Below are positions 9,669 to 63,730 of a stretch of DNA of 64,000 bases, piece by piece; position 1 is the stretch's first letter; every line of letters begins with the position of its first letter. A model generated the notes under the pieces. The model saw only the letters and a program-made list of their open reading frames with translations. It ran no database searches and had not been told where the DNA came from. Made by a program: the position numbers and the translations under genes. The stretch is from Escherichia coli (GTDB lineage Bacteria > Pseudomonadota > Gammaproteobacteria > Enterobacterales > Enterobacteriaceae): NCBI RefSeq assembly GCF_024223415.1, contig NZ_CP100502.1, one strand, 5' to 3'.

Positions 9669-9726
9669 TGACACTGGCGGGGTAAATCCCCGCCTTTTTC
9701 CTGCCGGTCCCCGGACAGAGCACAAA

Positions 9727-10057
9727 GGAAGTCGCCGCCGGCTCCGCTTTACCCGGCCATGCGGGGCATGGCCTTGTGGGTTTTCAGTTATGTGGCCACC
9801 GTGTCGTGTGCGGGCTGTGCCGTGCCTCCATCTTAGCCGGGCTGGCAGGGATGCAAGGGTACGCTTCGCCGCTGCGGTCACCCGGTCCCTCCTTCCCGTC
9901 TGCCGTGATTTTCCGGTCGTTCACCCGCTCAGATTTCGCGGTCTCACCCTCCAACTCCCGCCAGCCGTGTGCGTCAGGCTGCGGCTTCCCTTGCGCCCTG
10001 TGCATCCCCGCCTTATCGCCCGGCTTTTATGGAGGCACGGCACCGCCCGGTGTCGCG
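9727..10057 (+). repeat. Family-A ssi/Frpo-like repeat, copy A1
   Basis: seq: about 330 nt nearly identical to 16711..17041, GC-rich and hairpin-rich, ending about 30 nt before a gene start. known: IncI1 and F leading regions carry ssi/Frpo single-strand promoters. Confidence 0.6.
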
Positions 10058-10085
10058 GAATATGTGAACAACGGAGGAATACATC

Positions 10086-11199: not shown

Positions 11200-11905
11200 G
11201 CCCGCGCGAAAACCCCTGGCAGGCTGACGCCTGCCGGAAGGGAAGCGGGCCACGCTGGCGCGTCGCCCGTTACCCTTCCCGTCTGTGATGTGTCTGACTC
11301 AGGAGTGTTTCTTTCTTATGTTATGGAACTGTTCCTGATGTTGTTGTTCCTTTATCTGCTGCTCTGATTCTGACTACTGCAGTGTTGTTCTGTCTGCCGG
11401 GCGCACCTTCGGCTCCCGGCTGCCTGGCGGCATCCGGTCGTCAGGCCCGACTCCGACAGGCAGCTGCTGGCGCACCCGCCAGTCTCCGCCGAACCCGCTG
11501 GCGCGGTTTCGGGCTGTCGCTACGGTCCGATGCGTGAAAACCCGGGCTTGCAGCGACCGTTCCGGTCGCGCCGCCTCTGTCGCGCCGTGACCTGCGCTCC
11601 CTGCACACCTGACGGTGTGTGAGGAAACTGCGCCTGATGGCGCAGCAGTCCTCCCTCCTGCCGCCACCTCTGCGGCCTGTTTCCCGCTGTGGACTTTCCG
11701 GGGGGCAGACGTAACCCCCTCCCGTTCCATCTGTCCAGGGTGAGATGCACCGGCCACAAAATTTTTAGCCATGAACCCGGCAAAAAATTTTGCGTCCGCC
11801 CCCGGACAGCTGTCCCGTGAGGCGGTAAACGGGCCCCCATCGGAAAGGTCCACTGCGGGGAGAAACCCCTGTGAAGTGGACGGCAGGAGGAGCTTTCGCT
11901 CCTCT
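11200..11905 (+). repeat. Family-B ssi/Frpo-like repeat, copy B1
   Basis: seq: long GC-rich repeat shared with 17600..18250 and partly with 20815..21140 (e.g. 'caccttcggctcccggctgcctggcggcatccggtcgtcaggcccgactccgacaggcag'); ends about 70 nt before ssb. Confidence 0.55.
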
Positions 11906-16607: not shown

Positions 16608-16710
16608 ACCAGACATGTATATTTTACGCAGGGACACGCCGATCATGATCGTTTCATATCAGGGGTGGTCTGGAGGTCATGCGGCGTGTCCTCTGCACTC
16701 GCCGGAATAA

Positions 16711-17041
16711 GGAAGTCGCCGGCGGCTCCGCTTTTACCCGGCCATGCGGGGCATGGCCTTGTGGGTTTTCAGCTCTGTGGCCTCAGCGTCGTGTGCGGGC
16801 TGTGCCGTGCCTCCATCTTAGCCGGGCTGGCAGGGATGCAAGGGTACGCTTCGCCGCTGCGGTCACCCGGTCCCTCCTTCCCGTCTGCCGTGATTTTCCG
16901 GTCGTTCACCCGCTCAGATTTCGCGGTCTCACCCTCCAACTCCCGCCAGCCGTGTGCGTCAGGCTGCGGCTTCCCTTGCGCCCTGTGCATCCCCGCCTTA
17001 TCGCCCGGCTTTTATGGAGGCACGGCACCGCCCGGTGTCGC
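16711..17041 (+). repeat. Family-A ssi/Frpo-like repeat, copy A2
   Basis: seq: near-identical to 9727..10057; ends about 30 nt before ardA. Confidence 0.6.
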
Positions 17042-17069
17042 AGAACATGTGACTATGGAGGATTCGGGA

Positions 17070-17599: not shown

Positions 17600-18250
17600 C
17601 CTGCCAGGCCGCCGGAAAACCCTGGCAGGCTTACGCCTGCCTGAAATGCAGGAGGGCCGCGCCTGCGGCGCTGCCCTTCCTGCCCGTCATGGTGTGAGGC
17701 ATTTTTCTGTTATGTCGTTTCTGTTGTTCTGATTTCCGGAGGCGGGGACACCTTCGGCTCCCGGCTGCCTGGCGGCATCCGGTCGTCAGGCCCGACTCCG
17801 ACAGGCAGCTGCTGGCGCACCCGCCAGTCTCCGCCGAACCCGCTGGCGCGGTTTCGGGCTGCCGCTACGGTCCGATGTCTGAAAAACCAGGCTTGCAGCG
17901 ACCGTTCCGGTCGCGCCGCCCCTGTCGCGCCGGAAACGGCGCTCCCTGCACACCTTACGGTGTGTAAGGCAACTGCGCCTGATGGCGCAGTCAACCCTTC
18001 CGCCGCCACCCCTGCGGCCTGTTTCCCGCTGTGGACTTTCCGGGGGCTGGAGTAACCACATCCCGTTTCAGCAGTCCAGGGGAAGATATACCGTCCACAA
18101 AATTTTTAGCCATAAACCCGGCAAAAAATTTTGCGTCCGCCCCCGGACAGCTGCCCCGTGACGTGGTGACGGACGCCCCATCGGAAAGGTCCACTGCGGG
18201 GAGAAACCCCGAAGAAGTGGACGGCAGAAGGGGCTTTCGCCCCTCCGGGG
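17600..18250 (+). repeat. Family-B ssi/Frpo-like repeat, copy B2
   Basis: seq: aligns along its length with 11200..11905; starts right after the ardA stop. Confidence 0.55.
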
Positions 18251-20814: not shown

Positions 20815-21140
20815 GTCGCGCCGGATGCGGCGCTCCCTGCACACCTTACGGTGTGTAAGGCCACTGCGCCTGATGGCGCAGCTGTCTCTGCCTGTCTGCC
20901 GCCGCACTGCGGCCTGTTCTCCGCAGATGGACTTTCCGGGGGTACATACACGACCACATCCCGTTTCAGTCGTCCAGGGGAGAGATGTACCAGCCACAAA
21001 ACTTTTTGCCGCAGGCGTCAAAAACTTTTGCGTCTGCCCCCGGACAACTGCCCCGTGACGTGGTGAGCGTCCCCCGTCGGAAAGGTCCACTGCGGGGAAA
21101 TCCCCGAAGACCCGGACGGCAGAAGGAGCTTCGCTCCTCC
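20815..21140 (+). repeat. Family-B ssi/Frpo-like repeat, copy B3 (5'-truncated)
   Basis: seq: matches the 3' two-thirds of B1/B2 from 'ggcgctccctgcacaccttacggtgtgtaagg' onward. Confidence 0.5.
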
Positions 21141-21187
21141 GGGAAATGACCTGGCTGACCCGGCAGTCGTGACGATGAGGAGACAAT

Positions 21188-22123: not shown

Positions 22124-22459
22124 TCAATTGTTGTTCATATCGATGCCATCTTTCCTGGCTGAATCTGTCTTTTTAGATGCTGTTTTAGAGGAAGAACGGC
22201 GGGATGGCTTTTTCGATTCTGCTTCCCGAATAATGTCACGAAGTGCCTTCTCTCCTACTTCATACCCTGCATTTTTGAGCGTATCACGAACATCTGCCAG
22301 TGTATAACCCTTTGTCCTTACCAGAACAATAATGTCATCACGAATGGCATCAAGAAAATCACGCAATGTTTTCCGTTGAGCGGTGAGATCTGGCAATTCC
22401 GATAAAGCAGCTTTTGCCAGCTGGATGTCATCATCTGAGTAAAATTTTTTAGAAGCCAT
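22124..22459 (-). CDS. Hypothetical protein with Lys/Ser/Arg-rich C-terminal tail
   Basis: seq: ATG 22459 with GGAGAG upstream (track GTG 22465); tail 'KKPSRRSSSKTASKKTDSARK' is histone-like; transcribed divergently from nikA. Confidence 0.4.
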   Translation of the reverse strand: MASKKFYSDDDIQLAKAALSELPDLTAQRKTLRDFLDAIRDDIIVLVRTKGYTLADVRDTLKNAGYEVGEKALRDIIREAESKKPSRRSSSKTASKKTDSARKDGIDMNNN

Positions 22460-22586
22460 TGGCACTTTCTCTCCGTTTCATGTTGAAGTCTGATTTTATC
22501 ATCAAAAACTGACTCCTGGCAGGGCTGCGCCCTGCCTCTGCCGTCTGCATAAGACTATGATGCACAAAAATAACAGGCTATAATGG

Positions 22587-22648
22587 CCTGAAAAACGGGA
22601 CAGGATGTGCAATTGTAATACCGTCACACGCGACGCTATTACAATTGC
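22587..22648 (-). other. oriT: Origin of transfer (oriT) core with 17-bp inverted repeat and nic region
   Basis: seq: minus-strand 'ggtattacaattgcacatcctgtcccgtttttcagg' with arms 22609..22625 and 22632..22648. known: from memory the R64 nic lies in 'CATCCTG|TCCCG'; position upstream of nikA fits. Confidence 0.6.
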
Positions 22649-22692
22649 CATCTGGTCAGGGCTTCGCCCCGACACCCCGTAAGGAGCCTGAA

Positions 22693-23025
22693 GTGAGTGA
22701 TAGTGCGGTAAGAAAGAAAAGTGAGGTACGGCAAAAGACAGTTGTCAGGACACTCAGATTCTCTCCTGTTGAGGATGAAACCATCAGGAAAAAAGCTGAA
22801 GATTCCGGACTTACTGTATCTGCTTACATCCGAAATGCAGCACTGAATAAGCGAATTAACTCCCGTACAGATGATGCTTTTCTGAAGGAGTTAATGAGAC
22901 TGGGAAGGATGCAGAAGCATCTGTTTGTTCAGGGAAAAAGAACCGGTGACAAGGAATACGCAGAAGTGCTTGTTGCCATAACCGAACTTACAAATACATT
23001 GCGTAAACAGTTAATGGAAGGTTGA
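22693..23025 (+). CDS. nikA: Relaxosome accessory protein NikA
   Basis: seq: GTG 22693 with AAGGAG RBS gives 110 aa 'MSDSAVRKKSEVRQKTVVRTLRFSPVEDETIRKKAEDSGLTVSAYIRNAAL', matching R64 NikA in size and sequence from memory. Confidence 0.85.
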   Translation: MSDSAVRKKSEVRQKTVVRTLRFSPVEDETIRKKAEDSGLTVSAYIRNAALNKRINSRTDDAFLKELMRLGRMQKHLFVQGKRTGDKEYAEVLVAITELTNTLRKQLMEG

Positions 23026-23035
23026 GGATTCTCCG

Positions 23036-25735
23036 GTGAATGCAGTCATTCCGAAAAAGAGAAGGGACGGCAAGTCTTCGTTCGAAGACCTGGTATCCTA
23101 CGTCTCTGTCCGGGATGACATGACCGATGAGGAACTGGATTTATCTTCTTCTTCGCAGGCTGAACAACCGCACCGAAGCCGTTTCAGTCGCCTTGTTGAT
23201 TATGCGACACGTCTTCGAAATGAGTCATTCGTGGCGCTGGTTGATGTCATGAAGGACGGCTGCGAATGGGTCAACTTTTATGGTGTCACCTGCTTTCATA
23301 ACTGTACTTCTCTTGAAACTGCCGCTGCAGATATGGAGTACATTGCCCGGCAGGCACACTATGCAAAAGATGACACTGATCCTGTTTTTCACTACATCCT
23401 TTCCTGGCAGTCACATGAAAGCCCGCGTCCGGAACAGATTTATGACAGTGTACGTCATACGCTGAAATCACTCGGCCTTGCCGACCATCAGTATGTCTCT
23501 GCCGTGCATACTGATACAGATAATCTGCACGTCCATGTGGCTGTTAACCGGGTACACCCTGAAACGGGTTATCTGAACCGGTTATCCTGGAGTCAGGAAA
23601 AACTCAGTCGTGCCTGCCGTGAGCTTGAACTGAAGCATGGTTTTGCTCCGGATAACGGTTGCTGGGTCCATGCACCGGGAAATCGTATCGTTCGCAAAAC
23701 CGCCGTTGAACGTGATCGCCAGAACGCGTGGACACGCGGGAAAAAACAAACTTTTCGCGAGTATGTCGCGCAGACAGCGGTCGCTGGTTTACGCAGTGAA
23801 CCTGTAAATGACTGGTTATCCCTGCATCGTCGTCTTGCGGAAGATGGTCTGTACCTGTCTCAGATGGACGGAAAATTTCTGGTGATGGATGGCTGGGATC
23901 GCAACAGGGAAGGTGTACAGCTTGACTCGTTTGGTCCCTCCTGGTGTGCAGAAAAACTCATGAAAAAAATGGGTGACTACACGCCAGTACCAAAAGACAT
24001 TTTCAGCCAGGTGGAAGCACCAGGACGCTATAATCCGGACTTCATTGCCGCTGATGTTCGCCCGGAAAAAATCGCTGAAACAGAAAGTCTGCAGCAGTAT
24101 GCCTGTCGTCATCTTGGAGAACGTCTGCCGGAAATGGCACGGGAAGGACGGCTGGAAAACTGCCAGGCTATTCACCGCACACTGGCTGAAGCGGGATTAT
24201 GGATGCGTGTTCAGCATGGTCACCTGGTTATCTGTGACGGTTATGATCATAACCAGACTCCCGTTCGTGCTGACAGCGTATGGTCGCTGCTGACGCTCGA
24301 CAATGTGAATCAACTCGATGGTGGCTGGCAGCCTGTACCAACAGATATTTTCCGCCAGGTTACGCCAACAGAACGCTTCCGTGGTCGTCGTATGGAGAGC
24401 TGTCCTGCGACCGATAAAGAATGGCACCGTATGCGTACAGGCACGGGGCCGCAGGGGGCTATCAAACGCGAACTGTTTTCTGACAAAGAAAGTCTGTGGG
24501 GATACAGCATCAGCCATTGTAGCCCTCAGATTGAAGAAATGATCACACAGGGTGAGTTTACCTGGCAGCGTTGTCATGAGCTGTTTGCACAACAGGGACT
24601 GATGCTACAGAAACAACATCACGGGCTTGTTGTCGTTGATGCCTTTAATCATGAGCAAACGCCGGTGAAGGCCAGCAGCATTCATCCTGATCTGACACTG
24701 GGGCGTGCAGAGCCACAGGCCGGACCTTTTGTGAGTGCCCCAGCAGATTTGTTTGACAGGGTGCAACCTGAAAGTCGCTATAACCCGGAGCTGGCTGTCA
24801 GTGACAGGTACGGGGTCAGCAGTAAACGTGACCCAATGCTGCGCCGGCAGCGACGTGAAGCCAGAGCTGAGGCCCGTGCTGACCTGCGTGCCCGCTATCT
24901 GGCATGGCGTGAACAATGGCGTAAACCAGATCTGCGTTATGGGGAACGTTGTCGGGAAATTCATCAGGCATGCCGTCTGCGGAAGTCACACATTCGTGCG
25001 CAGTACGATGATCCGGCATTACGTAAGCTGCATTATCACATTGCAGAAGTTCAGCGAATGCAGGCATTGATCAGGCTGAAAGAAGACATCAGGGATGAGC
25101 GACAGAAACTTATTGCTGATGGGAAATGGTATCCACCCTCTTACCGTCAGTGGGTCGAAATTCAGGCTGCTCAGGGAGACAGGGCTGCTGTATCGCAGCT
25201 GAGAGGCTGGGATTATCGCGATCGCCGTAAAGACAGGTCACGCACAACGACGACAGACCGCTGTGTCGTGCTTTGTGAACCGGGCGGAACGCCGGTATAC
25301 GGTAATACCGGTGATCTCGAGGCCCGTCTGCAGAAGAACGGGAGTGTTCGTTTCCGTGACCGTCGGACGGGAGAGTTTGTCTGTACGGATTATGGTGACA
25401 GGGTTGTTTTCCGTAATCACCATGACCGCAATGCGCTGGCAGATAAACTGGATTTGATTGCACCGGTATTATTCGGGCGTGATCCACGCATGGGTTTTGA
25501 ACCAGAAGGAAACGACAAACAATTTAACCAGGTCTTTGCTGAAATGGTTGCCTGGCATAATGTGACAGGCCGTACCGGTCACGAAGACTACAGGATTACG
25601 CGACCGGACGTGGATCATCACCGTGAAGGAAGTGAACGCTACTACCGCGATTATATCGCGGCGAACAGCAACAATGACGCATCACTGCCTCCGCCGGAGC
25701 AGGATAAACGCTGGGAACCGCCTTCTCCAGGTTAA
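23036..25735 (+). CDS. nikB: Relaxase NikB
   Basis: seq: 899 aa right after nikA; His-rich motif 'HTDTDNLHVHVAVNRVHP'; size matches R64 NikB. Confidence 0.9.
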   Translation: MNAVIPKKRRDGKSSFEDLVSYVSVRDDMTDEELDLSSSSQAEQPHRSRFSRLVDYATRLRNESFVALVDVMKDGCEWVNFYGVTCFHNCTSLETAAADMEYIARQAHYAKDDTDPVFHYILSWQSHESPRPEQIYDSVRHTLKSLGLADHQYVSAVHTDTDNLHVHVAVNRVHPETGYLNRLSWSQEKLSRACRELELKHGFAPDNGCWVHAPGNRIVRKTAVERDRQNAWTRGKKQTFREYVAQTAVAGLRSEPVNDWLSLHRRLAEDGLYLSQMDGKFLVMDGWDRNREGVQLDSFGPSWCAEKLMKKMGDYTPVPKDIFSQVEAPGRYNPDFIAADVRPEKIAETESLQQYACRHLGERLPEMAREGRLENCQAIHRTLAEAGLWMRVQHGHLVICDGYDHNQTPVRADSVWSLLTLDNVNQLDGGWQPVPTDIFRQVTPTERFRGRRMESCPATDKEWHRMRTGTGPQGAIKRELFSDKESLWGYSISHCSPQIEEMITQGEFTWQRCHELFAQQGLMLQKQHHGLVVVDAFNHEQTPVKASSIHPDLTLGRAEPQAGPFVSAPADLFDRVQPESRYNPELAVSDRYGVSSKRDPMLRRQRREARAEARADLRARYLAWREQWRKPDLRYGERCREIHQACRLRKSHIRAQYDDPALRKLHYHIAEVQRMQALIRLKEDIRDERQKLIADGKWYPPSYRQWVEIQAAQGDRAAVSQLRGWDYRDRRKDRSRTTTTDRCVVLCEPGGTPVYGNTGDLEARLQKNGSVRFRDRRTGEFVCTDYGDRVVFRNHHDRNALADKLDLIAPVLFGRDPRMGFEPEGNDKQFNQVFAEMVAWHNVTGRTGHEDYRITRPDVDHHREGSERYYRDYIAANSNNDASLPPPEQDKRWEPPSPG

Positions 25736-30353: not shown

Positions 30354-30505
30354 GACAAAGTCTCCATTTCTGGAATTTAAATCAAACGGAAAGGTTAAAA
30401 ATTTATTTGCAGGCGATAAGAGCTAACCAGAGGAATTAGCCGTGCGATAAAAGGATTGTTGCAGATACGAAAGTCGTTAGAATAGCTGCGGGCGCTTGAG
30501 GCTGT

Positions 30506-30790
30506 ATGCCGAAAGCGTTTTGTGGACGGTATACAGCAGAAAGCCCCTGGAGATTTTTTTATCAATCAACCAAGGGCTCTACTGTAATGCCTAGACAACA
30601 TTATAGTAGCCCGATAACCGCCGTAAGGCAATGGAGGGGCTATGATGCCACAGCGAACGTTTTTAATGATGTTAATCGTCATCTGTGTGACGATTCTGTG
30701 TTTTGTCTGGATGGTGAGGGATTCGCTTTGCGGACTCCGGCTCCAGCAGGGAAACACAGTGCTTGTGGCAACGTTAGCCTACGAAGTTAA
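30506..30790 (+). CDS. pndC: pndC (mok-like) overlapping reading frame
   Basis: seq: ORF overlapping pndA in another frame and ending 7 nt before its stop, as in hok/mok loci. Confidence 0.45.
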   Translation: MPKAFCGRYTAESPWRFFYQSTKGSTVMPRQHYSSPITAVRQWRGYDATANVFNDVNRHLCDDSVFCLDGEGFALRTPAPAGKHSACGNVSLRS

Positions 30791-31263: not shown

Positions 31264-31294
31264 CAACAGATGTAAAAAAACCGACTGGTGAGGT
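31264..31294. terminator. Bidirectional Rho-independent terminator
   Basis: seq: 'aaaaaaaccgacTGGTGAGgtcggttttttt', 6-bp stem flanked by an A-run and a T-run. Confidence 0.6.
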
Positions 31295-31336
31295 CGGTTT
31301 TTTTACTGTTCCGTTACAGAGTGGGTGGCCCTGACC

Positions 31337-31360
31337 GGAGGAAATCTCTTTTCAACTAAC
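31337..31360 (+). repeat. 24-bp direct repeat copy 1 (ggaggaaatctcttttcaactaac)
   Basis: seq: repeated at 31524..31547 with one mismatch; followed by TATAAT-like hexamers at 31366 and 31403; its first 10 nt are the reverse complement of 31593..31602. Confidence 0.8.
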
Positions 31361-32627: not shown

Positions 32628-33278
32628 TTAAAATACTTCGGCTACAGGCATGCCTGCAATCTGCTCCCACTCCTTACGCTTCTCCTGAATTAGGCGAGGA
32701 AAGTCGACAGGGTAATCATATCCTCTTTCTGCCATTGCATGCATTGTATCCGCCATCATTTTGGGATGGATGCATCCTGACGGAATTGAGACCATTGGTA
32801 TATTTATGTATTTTGTATAAATCTCTAGTGTCTTGGCGTCGGTCACAGTGCGTGTGAAGTTGTCAATGTCAAAGCCGATAATATCCATTATATTTCCAGG
32901 GTAAGCACGAGCATACAGCATAGTGCCTTTTTTGGTATCCACGCCAAAATAGACGCCCTGAGTAAAAGACAGTCCCTCATATTCTTTGTCAGGTGAATAA
33001 AAACCGGTGTTTTTTATCTCCGCGACAATTTTTTTTATTTTGTCTTTTCTTGAGCTTGCTCGGGAATACATCAATATTGCAGGGGCAATTAGTAAAAACA
33101 GACAGACGCAAGTATAAATATAATCTTCTTGCGTCACATATCTTGAAGATGTAATGGAGAGCAATCCGAAAAGAATAAAAATGGATAACACTGGTATGCT
33201 TATGAAATATATAAATCTAAGGGCGTAATATAATGTCCACCAAGCAGGATATCTATTGATTGTTTTTACCATTTGCAT
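32628..33278 (-). CDS. excA: Inner-membrane protein, candidate entry-exclusion protein (ExcA-like)
   Basis: seq: ATG 33278 has GGAGGG 7 nt upstream (track from 33302); two hydrophobic spans. known: excA lies between traY and pnd/trbA in R64. Confidence 0.5.
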
Positions 33279-33351
33279 AATAAACCCTCCATAAACACTC
33301 ATCGATATTTTAATGCGATTGAGTGTTTATGGCAAGGTTGTTTTATTAAAT

Positions 33352-35589
33352 TTATCCTTTTATTCCATCTTTATTATCATCCTTTGTGACATTTTTTAGT
33401 CTGTCCTCTCTAACTCCAGGGCTGTGTCTAATATTTCTATTAGAACCTGCAAAAATATCTTTTACTGATGAGGTGAGGTTGCCAAGAGTATTTACACCAT
33501 CTCTACCACCCAAGAAATTGATAACATGGTCAGGAAGATATGCTTGTAAAGCAAATATTGCAGCTACAGACGTTGTACACATACGGGCGTAAATTAGCAG
33601 GAACCCGGCAAGGCTGAATATCCCTGTTAATGATTTTACCTGTACGTTAACTAGTGCTGCGCCAAACAGTGAGTTTAATATTGTGCCGACGGCAATGATG
33701 GCGACAGAGGCAAAAAAGAAACCGAATACCATGAGAGGTGGTCTTATCATGCTGTCAATTAAGTATATATATCCGTAAGCTGCTCGACTTCCTCTGTCCT
33801 CTGATGTTCCTAGATGTGTTGCTGCCCACAGAGGCCCGGCAGTGCATCCTATTAATACGCTTACTATCCAGTTCCCAATGCCTGTCATCCAGAAAATGAA
33901 TGGTATAAATGGTAGGTAAATTGATAAGGAAAAACCCGCACAAAACAACAGGAACAACAAGAAATATATTGGGGGAGCTGCAGCATCCAGCAGAGCAACA
34001 AATCCTTTAGGTAATCCAGAGAACAAATTAACAGCCTTTCCGAAAATAGAGTTATCACCCATTGTCGCGAGAACTCTGACAGTTGTATATCCTGTCCAGA
34101 GAATTTCTGTTGTACCCAATGTATAATCGCCGATGTTTTTCATCTTAATTAATGGGTTAACTTGGTTGCTGGTTGTTCCTGTTCCTGACCATTCAGTAGC
34201 AGCTTGGTTTGTCCATTTTAATATGGTTGGCGCTATACTTTTCATGACCACACTTTGTGGGTCTGTGCTATTAGCTGCATTACTTTCATCTTGAGTTGTT
34301 ATCGTTCCTATCGTTGGAGTATATGTGGAGTTCTGTAATTGAGTCTTGTATGCCCCCATAACAGCACTAAATAAATCAGTATCGCCAACTTCCCCAAGTG
34401 ATGACATTGAAGTTACAGCTGGAGCTCTGTCAGCCAGCTCTGCCAGACGCTGGTTAGCAGTGGCAAAGGTCTGATACCACGCGCCAAGCGTCACCCATCC
34501 ATAGGTTGTGAGATAAGACTTGAGAGCTTCTTTCCTGGATTGTTCTCCGTTATCAATAGGTAGCGATTTTTGTACAGCGCGTTCATACTCGTCGGCTGCT
34601 CTCTGAATCCGTGTCTCGATATCCGGCAATATTCCGTTGCCAGAATTTCTTTTTTCCAGAAATGTTGTCACAAACTCACTGGCAGCGTTGTCCATGTCGC
34701 TAATCATATTATCCATGGCTGCACGTTGTGCTGAGATAACACCGCTGTATTCGTTTTTACTGAAGGGATTAAAGAATTTTCCAATCGTCGATTGATCTGT
34801 TGTTCCGTTTCCTTCTACTGACAGGCTGGCTGAACCACAGATACCGCTGCCATTGGATACCGTGACAGTGTAATTACCACTGGCGGTTTTAGCTGATTCT
34901 GTCATCAGTGAAGTCGAGGATTTGACCGTCTGATTAAAATCATTTAGTCCTGCGTTAACCGCATACTTACACAGTTCCATTTCAAAAATGCCACGCGCTG
35001 CTGTTCGTGTGGATGCCTGAACTGGCTGTACAGTCATTGAATAACCATTTGCGATATTATCAGCGGCAAGTTGCACCATCACATTGGCGGACCCAACCCC
35101 CATTATCGATGCGCCCCATAACATAATGAGCTGAGCGATACTCCAGCCATTTCCGGTTGGAACGATCATCAGAAAACCTGCAACGACACTCAGTGTGCCG
35201 ACGATATCGCGTCCGGTGCTGAATACCTGTCCCTGATGCCCCGAACGCACAACATGACGGATACCAATGAACATAAACCAGACAACGGCAAGTACGGCGA
35301 TGATACTGTTGAACGCCCCGAACATGCTTCCGATCAGAGTGGGGGCGCTGGTTGACAGTGGATTGGTGACTACATCACCGAATATCGTGACCAGCGCCTG
35401 GCGAGACAGATCGTCAGGATTGGTTGCGGCAGACACAATATCCTGATAGGTCACTGAAGCCATTGCCGGCAGTGAGGATATAGCAAGGCCTGCACAGAGT
35501 GCGCGAAGTAAAATTTTCACAGTAACTCCGGAATAGAATTGCGTATGGGCAAAGGCCACACAGGATTTAATTAAGGGGGATGGCGACAT
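33352..35589 (-). CDS. traY: TraY, polytopic membrane protein of the I-type T4SS
   Basis: seq: 745 aa with multiple hydrophobic segments; last gene of the block. Confidence 0.75.
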   Translation of the reverse strand: MSPSPLIKSCVAFAHTQFYSGVTVKILLRALCAGLAISSLPAMASVTYQDIVSAATNPDDLSRQALVTIFGDVVTNPLSTSAPTLIGSMFGAFNSIIAVLAVVWFMFIGIRHVVRSGHQGQVFSTGRDIVGTLSVVAGFLMIVPTGNGWSIAQLIMLWGASIMGVGSANVMVQLAADNIANGYSMTVQPVQASTRTAARGIFEMELCKYAVNAGLNDFNQTVKSSTSLMTESAKTASGNYTVTVSNGSGICGSASLSVEGNGTTDQSTIGKFFNPFSKNEYSGVISAQRAAMDNMISDMDNAASEFVTTFLEKRNSGNGILPDIETRIQRAADEYERAVQKSLPIDNGEQSRKEALKSYLTTYGWVTLGAWYQTFATANQRLAELADRAPAVTSMSSLGEVGDTDLFSAVMGAYKTQLQNSTYTPTIGTITTQDESNAANSTDPQSVVMKSIAPTILKWTNQAATEWSGTGTTSNQVNPLIKMKNIGDYTLGTTEILWTGYTTVRVLATMGDNSIFGKAVNLFSGLPKGFVALLDAAAPPIYFLLFLLFCAGFSLSIYLPFIPFIFWMTGIGNWIVSVLIGCTAGPLWAATHLGTSEDRGSRAAYGYIYLIDSMIRPPLMVFGFFFASVAIIAVGTILNSLFGAALVNVQVKSLTGIFSLAGFLLIYARMCTTSVAAIFALQAYLPDHVINFLGGRDGVNTLGNLTSSVKDIFAGSNRNIRHSPGVREDRLKNVTKDDNKDGIKG

Positions 35590-63484: not shown

Positions 63485-63702
63485 TTGAGCGTTACACACG
63501 ACGCAATACAACCTGTCTTATGCTCGTATTTGTACCATTTGCGTGAACCTGCTGGGCTCTCAACTACCTGGCAGTAGTGGGCATCCTCTGCGTTGCCCAT
63601 TCTGGCAATGGCACAGAAGTCGAATTGCCCCAGATAACCTGTGGTGGAAAGCTGAGTAACTTTGAGTTTTCCACCTATTGTCCCCCACGTACCGGATTGG
63701 CA
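63481..63702 (-). CDS. pilV: PilV C-terminal cassette in shufflon segment 2, opposite orientation
   Basis: seq: my translation from the inverted repeat gives CQSGTWGTIGGKLKVTQL... to a stop overlapping the + cassette stop; not in the track (no Met start). Confidence 0.5.
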   Translation of the reverse strand, partial: CQSGTWGTIGGKLKVTQLSTTGYLGQFDFCAIARMGNAEDAHYCQVVESPAGSRKWYKYEHKTGCIASCVTLN

Positions 63703-63703
63703 C
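63685..63703 (-). repeat. Shufflon 19-bp recombination site, inverted orientation
   Basis: seq: 'ccacgtaccggattggcac'. Confidence 0.8.
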
Positions 63704-63711
63704 TGGCCTAC

Positions 63712-63730
63712 GTGCCAATCCGGTACCTGG
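63712..63730 (+). repeat. Shufflon 19-bp recombination site, direct orientation
   Basis: seq: 'gtgccaatccggtacctgg'. Confidence 0.8.

Follow-up and report, generated by a model that had tools for sequence, protein, structure and literature searches.

An intergenic unit of ~91 bp, carrying a 17-bp and an 8-bp imperfect inverted repeat, lies directly upstream of nikA and nikB in the window, by which we mean the whole 64-kb stretch of DNA that was analysed. The features assigned at this locus are as follows.

22579–22584, plus strand: TATAAT, the probable −10 element of a nikAB promoter, proposed from its conserved position
22591–22681, minus strand: complete oriT unit (~91 bp), with the minus strand as the predicted nicked and transferred strand
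22591–22608, minus strand: conserved nick region ACATCCTGTCCCGTTTTT, delimited by identity across related oriTs
22600–22607, minus strand: nick-site 8-mer CATCCTG↓T (arrow, predicted nick), which fits the MOBP consensus (PMC3772185)
22609–22625: repeat A, the nick-proximal arm of the 17-bp inverted repeat and presumed NikA binding site, assigned from the repeat, its spacing, and its conservation
22632–22648: repeat B, the distal arm, with one mismatch to repeat A, with which it covaries
22655–22673: distal 8-bp imperfect inverted repeat GTCAGGGC-TTC-GCCCCGAC, read from the sequence
22693–23025, plus strand: nikA, ribbon-helix-helix (RHH) relaxosome accessory protein
23036–25735, plus strand: nikB, MOBP-family relaxase

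The product of nikA was identical to R64 NikA in all 110 residues, matched the Pfam NikA-like family (PF21983, 79 bits), and was identical over residues 2–52 to the solved NikA structure (PDB 2BA3). NikB was identical to its R64 counterpart at 897 of 899 residues (99.8%) and matched both the Pfam Relaxase family (PF03432) and the NCBIfam TraI/MobA(P) conjugative relaxase model, the latter with 416 bits (cutoff, 250). The window as a whole represents an IncI1 plasmid and was collinear with R64 from 44.4 to 90 kb (~45 kb), except for ~1.2 kb at the excA/traY junction. This segment, at 33099–34312 in the window and assigned to the junction by R64 coordinates, was the sole break in the megablast collinearity with this part of R64 and is plausibly an entry-exclusion specificity variant. 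The leading-region genes ssb, psiB, and ardA are located at lower coordinates and are coded on the plus strand, with the gene order taken from the collinearity with R64. Dispersed repeats of ~330–500 bp were also seen in the leading region as secondary BLAST matches to R64 (9725–10078 and 16709–17062; 11398–11904 and 17752–18245; 17924–18249 and 20815–21143). They may be Frpo/ssi-type single-strand promoter repeats, as mentioned for IncI plasmids in PMC3817090.

On the other side of the unit, a divergent, yggA-like 111-aa open reading frame (ORF) is found at 22124–22459 on the minus strand. It is annotated as "hypothetical" or, dubiously, as "MobC," and gave no match in Pfam or NCBIfam. Its 32%-identical homolog in pCTX-M3, Orf35, is reported to repress nikAB-tra transcription (PMC6112013), and by analogy the ORF may regulate the relaxosome operon here. 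Between yggA and the oriT unit, a perfect 8-bp GC-rich inverted repeat, GGCAGGGC-TGC-GCCCTGCC, was observed at 22518–22536; this palindrome is perfect because the window has one more G than R64.

The arms of the 17-bp inverted repeat read GCAATTGTAATACCGTC (22609–22625) and GACGCTATTACAATTGC (22632–22648) on the plus strand and are separated by a 6-nt spacer. They are complementary at 16 of 17 positions, the exception being C22621 opposite C22636, in agreement with the imperfect 17-bp repeat with one mismatch described in an earlier reading of the sequence alone (hereafter, the sequence-only reading). When inverted repeats of 17 nt with at most one mismatch and a loop of 0–20 nt were searched for, only two loci were detected in the 64-kb window, and such repeats appeared in none of 200 first-order Markov simulations. 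The second locus, at 63687–63730, consists of CACGTACCGGATTGGCAC and GTGCCAATCCGGTACCTGG, 8 nt apart. Its core, GTGCCAATCCGGT, is presumably the R64 shufflon sfx recombination site, and the locus resembles a head-to-head pair of sfx sites bordering the pilV shufflon, a region cut by the end of the window. The arms of the 8-bp repeat (22655–22662 and 22666–22673) are paired at seven of eight positions around a TTC loop, with one A·C mismatch.

The minus strand was found to contain exactly the sequence quoted in the sequence-only reading, in the order GACGGTATTACAATTGC-ACATCCTG-TCCCGTTTTTCAGG, with ATCCTG at 22606–22601. On this strand, ACATCCTG↓T, which matches YATCCTG↓Y, comes directly after the nick-proximal arm. 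The MOBP consensus nick sequence is 5′-(C/T)ATCCTG(C/T)-3′, of which ATCCTG is needed for cleavage by RP4 TraI and VirD2 (PMC3772185), and the 8-mer CATCCTGT (minus strand, 22607–22600) fits this consensus. No YATCCTGY 8-mer was found nearby on the plus strand; near the site, the consensus is present on the minus strand only. The nick is predicted to lie between G22601 and T22600 of the minus strand, based on the consensus, on the analogy with RP4, and on work on R64 in which Furuya and Komano, in 1991, reportedly placed it between G and T, 8 bp from the repeat. ATCCTG followed by a pyrimidine-rich tract, proposed as a nick-region signature in the sequence-only reading, is not diagnostic by itself. 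ATCCTG occurs 61 times and YATCCTGY 20 times on the two strands of the 64-kb window, and the motif by itself is therefore no evidence. What exceeds chance is the combination of the repeat, the 8-nt spacing, the motif, the position upstream of nikA, and the identity to R64.

The alignment with the published R64 oriT that had been suggested in the sequence-only reading was carried out, and the unit at 22591–22681 was identical to R64 (NC_005014.1, 66946–67036) at 91 of 91 positions (100%). It was also 100% identical to ColIb-P9 (39626–39716), and a search of a plasmid collection returned the exact 91-bp unit in 675 records. Over ~280 bp, the intergenic region upstream of nikA showed two differences from R64 (NC_005014.1), T22589 (C in R64) and one extra G near 22523, both located outside the 91-bp unit. 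The 701 bp around the site matched many IncI1 plasmids at 100%, and the genes under or beside these matches were annotated as nikA (IncI1-type relaxosome accessory protein) and nikB (IncI1-type relaxase). In R64, where the sequence is the same, NikA plus NikB have been reported to nick in a strand- and site-specific manner, as has cis-acting mobilisation, and the work of Furuya and Komano on R64 is said to have defined an oriT core of 44 bp. The R64 oriT has been described as ~93 bp long, with the "nick region and repeat A" as the core required for transfer (PMC4743918), and as lying directly upstream of nikA with 17 bp and 8 bp imperfect inverted repeats (PMC3817090). Furthermore, pEC156, a small plasmid lacking nikAB with an oriT copy 84% identical to that of R64, was mobilised by R64, and this mobilisation was lost when its F-type and R64-type oriT loci were removed together (PMC4743918). 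The best explanation of the site is, with near certainty, an IncI1 plasmid oriT identical to that of R64, and none of the results speaks against it. The R64-type IncI1 oriT is already known in detail, and there is nothing new at the site itself.

A sensitive search with a 141-bp query from the oriT region returned 3,777 plasmids, ~1,700 of which were typed as mobilizable. Many of the mobilizable matches were Col-type replicons of 1.5–5 kb that lack nikAB and match query positions ~32–122 alone, corresponding to ~22591–22681 of the window. In the flanks of the 91-bp unit, identity to the small plasmids dropped to 0.26–0.35. Since small plasmids without nikAB keep precisely the ~91-bp unit, they provide independent evidence that this is a cis-acting unit. 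The range originally noted, 22587–22648, covers the core but omits the distal 8-bp repeat (22655–22673) of the full unit.

Eighteen oriTs were aligned, comprising those of the window, R64, six other nikA-bearing large plasmids (I-gamma, B/O/K/Z, and K2/Z types, and one from Enterobacter), eight small plasmids, and two special cases, namely, a copy on an IncF plasmid without adjacent nikA and an IncI1-like plasmid with a deletion. The mean identity of the nick region (22591–22608) was 0.86 across the 17 related oriTs, compared with 0.55 for the next 26 nt, and its plus-strand sequence CGGGACAGGATGTG was near-invariant in the alignment. The 8-bp repeat was likewise near-invariant (identity, 0.91), and its A·C mismatch was present in 18 of 18 oriTs. 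At least five sequence types of the 17-bp arms were observed among the 18 oriTs, with complementarity kept. Seven of the nine outer arm pairs were changed on both sides, and 95% of the cells at the outer pairs were paired, compared with 31%–40% when the partner was slid by 1–3 columns. The covariation score of the arms was 0.257, compared with 0.079 in shuffles. The covariation count refers to the outer nine pairs; indels fell at non-paired columns of the MAFFT alignment, and the full arms were analysed per sequence. This covariation fits a DNA hairpin, symmetric duplex binding, or an RNA hairpin alike. Exactly 8 nt separate the end of repeat A from the predicted nick in the window and R64, as well as in every related oriT with ATCCTG and full-length arms. 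PMC4743918 cites a paper by Furuya & Komano (1997) whose title expresses a need for precise spacing.

The two arms were not equally conserved, with values of 0.82 for the proximal and 0.63 for the distal arm. In 1995, Furuya and Komano reportedly found that NikA binds only the nick-proximal arm (repeat A) and not the whole palindrome, and the better conservation of this arm is consistent with such binding. In every lineage, at least one mismatch was located in the inner third of the arms (positions 9–16 from the outer end), and the outer 8–9 bp were perfect. The divergence of NikA was mainly found in the N-terminal ~60 residues, which form the RHH DNA-binding part, with residues ~61–110 well conserved. 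This distribution fits a specificity of NikA that may have co-evolved with the arms.

The arm types of the tiny plasmids of 1.5–5 kb matched particular types of large plasmids. The arms of a 1598-bp plasmid were of the K2/Z type, those of a 1549-bp plasmid were of the B/O/K/Z type, and those of a 2495-bp Enterobacter plasmid were the same as in pECL189-3. These matches suggest helper-specific hitch-hiking cohorts of tiny plasmids. We consider it rather unlikely that two things hold jointly, namely, that oriT-only plasmids form helper-type-specific cohorts and that the asymmetry of repeats A and B is under selection, beyond being a tolerated imperfection. Parts of this reading have been published, as far as the citation of Moran & Hall 2017 in PMC9282650 conveys, and in work on oriT-only plasmids. 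In the IncI-type plasmid pCTXM14_020022 (NZ_CP032888.1, 695–822), an 18-bp deletion was observed that removes exactly the nick region GAAAAACGGGACAGGATG. This plasmid retains both repeats and an R64-identical nikA and is typed as "conjugative"; provided that it was assembled correctly, it is expected to be incapable of starting transfer in cis.

We also considered whether the repeats are mainly a regulatory element of nikAB, either an operator for NikA autoregulation or a 5′-leader RNA hairpin, and not a transfer origin. Transcription from the TATAAT at 22579–22584 would start at ~22591 and would thereby include the whole unit in the nikA leader. The TATAAT was at the same relative position in eight of eight nikA-bearing large plasmids and was absent from all eight small oriT-only plasmids. 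The plus-strand RNA was predicted to fold into the same hairpins (−43.8 kcal/mol, z = −3.1), and RHH accessory proteins are often autorepressors, such as MobC of RA3 (PMC4175270). However, the predicted RNA fold leaves the AAGGAG ribosome-binding site (RBS) and the GTG start unpaired, and the sequence is identical to the experimentally shown R64 oriT. Moreover, in the small plasmids without nikA and nikB downstream, the two repeats and the nick region are retained, whereas the TATAAT and the RBS are missing. A promoter and terminator scan of 22300–22800 gave two minus-strand sites, a weak promoter-like one and a terminator-like one, of which neither exceeded the expectation from shuffled sequences; the plus-strand TATAAT was missed by this consensus scan because its −35 is poor. 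No Rfam RNA family overlapped the oriT site. Elsewhere in the window, Rfam matches at the gathering score were obtained at 30490–30647 (plus strand) for the sok antitoxin RNA (hok/sok-type pnd locus) and at 31272–31359 (minus strand) for the AgrB antisense RNA, beside what is the dinQ-like toxin gene region in R64. A mainly regulatory identity is therefore highly improbable on the evidence of the small plasmids, the RNA fold, and the R64 identity. The site may well have a regulatory role in addition to acting as oriT, but regulation as the sole function is excluded.

It is even less credible that the site serves site-specific recombination or multimer resolution and not conjugative transfer. 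NikB reportedly recombines tandem oriT copies independently of recA, according to a citation in PMC5714925, but this activity is a by-product of the nick-and-rejoin reaction at this very site and hence no alternative identity; in addition, no Xer-, resolvase-, or integrase-type recombinase gene lies next to the site. A functionless chance palindrome beside a chance ATCCTG, conceivable from the 61 copies of the motif and 20 of the 8-mer consensus in the window, can be dismissed, given the absence of such a repeat from all 200 simulated sequences, the covariation of the arms across lineages at a fixed 8-nt spacing, and the conservation of the unit in >2000 plasmids, including unrelated small replicons.

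With the site taken as an R64-type oriT, the following course of transfer is proposed. NikA, an RHH protein, would bind repeat A at 22609–22625; its binding is established for R64, and the restriction to this arm is reported from earlier work. Bound there, NikA would position NikB on the nick region exactly 8 nt away, a spacing known from the comparison, with the recruitment itself being presumed. NikB would then cut the CATCCTG↓T of the minus strand behind its G (22601/22600) and stay covalently attached to the 5′ end, as expected from its family. The minus strand would probably move 5′ to 3′ from T22600 towards lower coordinates, with the leading region (ssb, psiB, and ardA) entering the recipient first and nikAB, trb (trbCBA), and tra entering last. 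After one round, the A/B repeat and the distal 8-bp repeat can fold as hairpins in the displaced single strand. As single-stranded DNA, the nicked strand had a predicted fold of −30.5 kcal/mol (z = −7.65) with both hairpins formed. The hairpins may let NikB recognise and rejoin the ends, and the R64 work of Furuya and Komano is said to have ascribed such a role in termination to both sets of repeats.

The exact oriT, the predicted nick, the probable transfer direction, and the relaxosome genes are now annotated in the window. IncI1 plasmids are major carriers of extended-spectrum β-lactamase (ESBL) and other resistance genes, and the ~91-bp unit also lets many small plasmids hitch-hike on them. 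The site also serves as a validated positive control, a textbook element that was recognised from sequence alone.

Among known systems, the oriTs of R64 and ColIb-P9 are like that of the window in the 17-bp and 8-bp imperfect repeats, the nick region, and the 8-nt spacing, and R64 has the flanking genes in common with it, namely, the yggA-like ORF, the DUF4942 gene, and trbCBA. The oriTs of the I-complex (IncB/O, K, Z, and I-gamma) and of small oriT-only or nikA-only Col-type plasmids share with that of the window its architecture, the nick region, the 8-bp repeat, and the 8-nt spacing. They differ in having other arm types, matched by divergent NikA N-termini (47%–88% identity), and in some of them the arms are 15 or 20 nt long.

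For IncP-1alpha, the oriT of pBS228 was used as the reference; a 50-nt RP4 nick-region sequence matched IncP-1alpha plasmids exactly. IncP-1alpha and the window are alike in the nick consensus YATCCTG↓Y and in having a MOBP-family relaxase. In pBS228, the proximal arm is followed by CTATCCTG↓C with 8 nt to the nick, as in the window, and the accessory gene traJ is on the repeat side and reads away from the nick, which is also the layout here. The IncP-like nic motif pointed out in the sequence-only reading is thus borne out by a geometry in common with pBS228 (imperfect repeat, 8 nt, and ATCCTG↓C). By contrast, the pBS228 repeat is a 19-nt imperfect repeat with 84% complementarity and a 2-nt spacer, whereas the window has 17-nt arms and a 6-nt spacer, and the IncP-1alpha arm sequences are unrelated to those of the window. 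In the IncP-1alpha (pBS228) oriT, nothing corresponding to the distal 8-bp repeat was found. NikA and IncP TraJ were ~30% identical over 46 residues, and the TraJ equivalog model, with a cutoff of 134 bits, gave NikA a score of 29 bits. Membership of the site in the IncP (RP4-type) oriTs was rejected on the unrelated arms and on this NikA score. The mating-pair apparatus also differs, being MPF_T in IncP and MPF_I here. Judged by these comparisons, the site would work like an IncP oriT but belongs to the IncI1 family.
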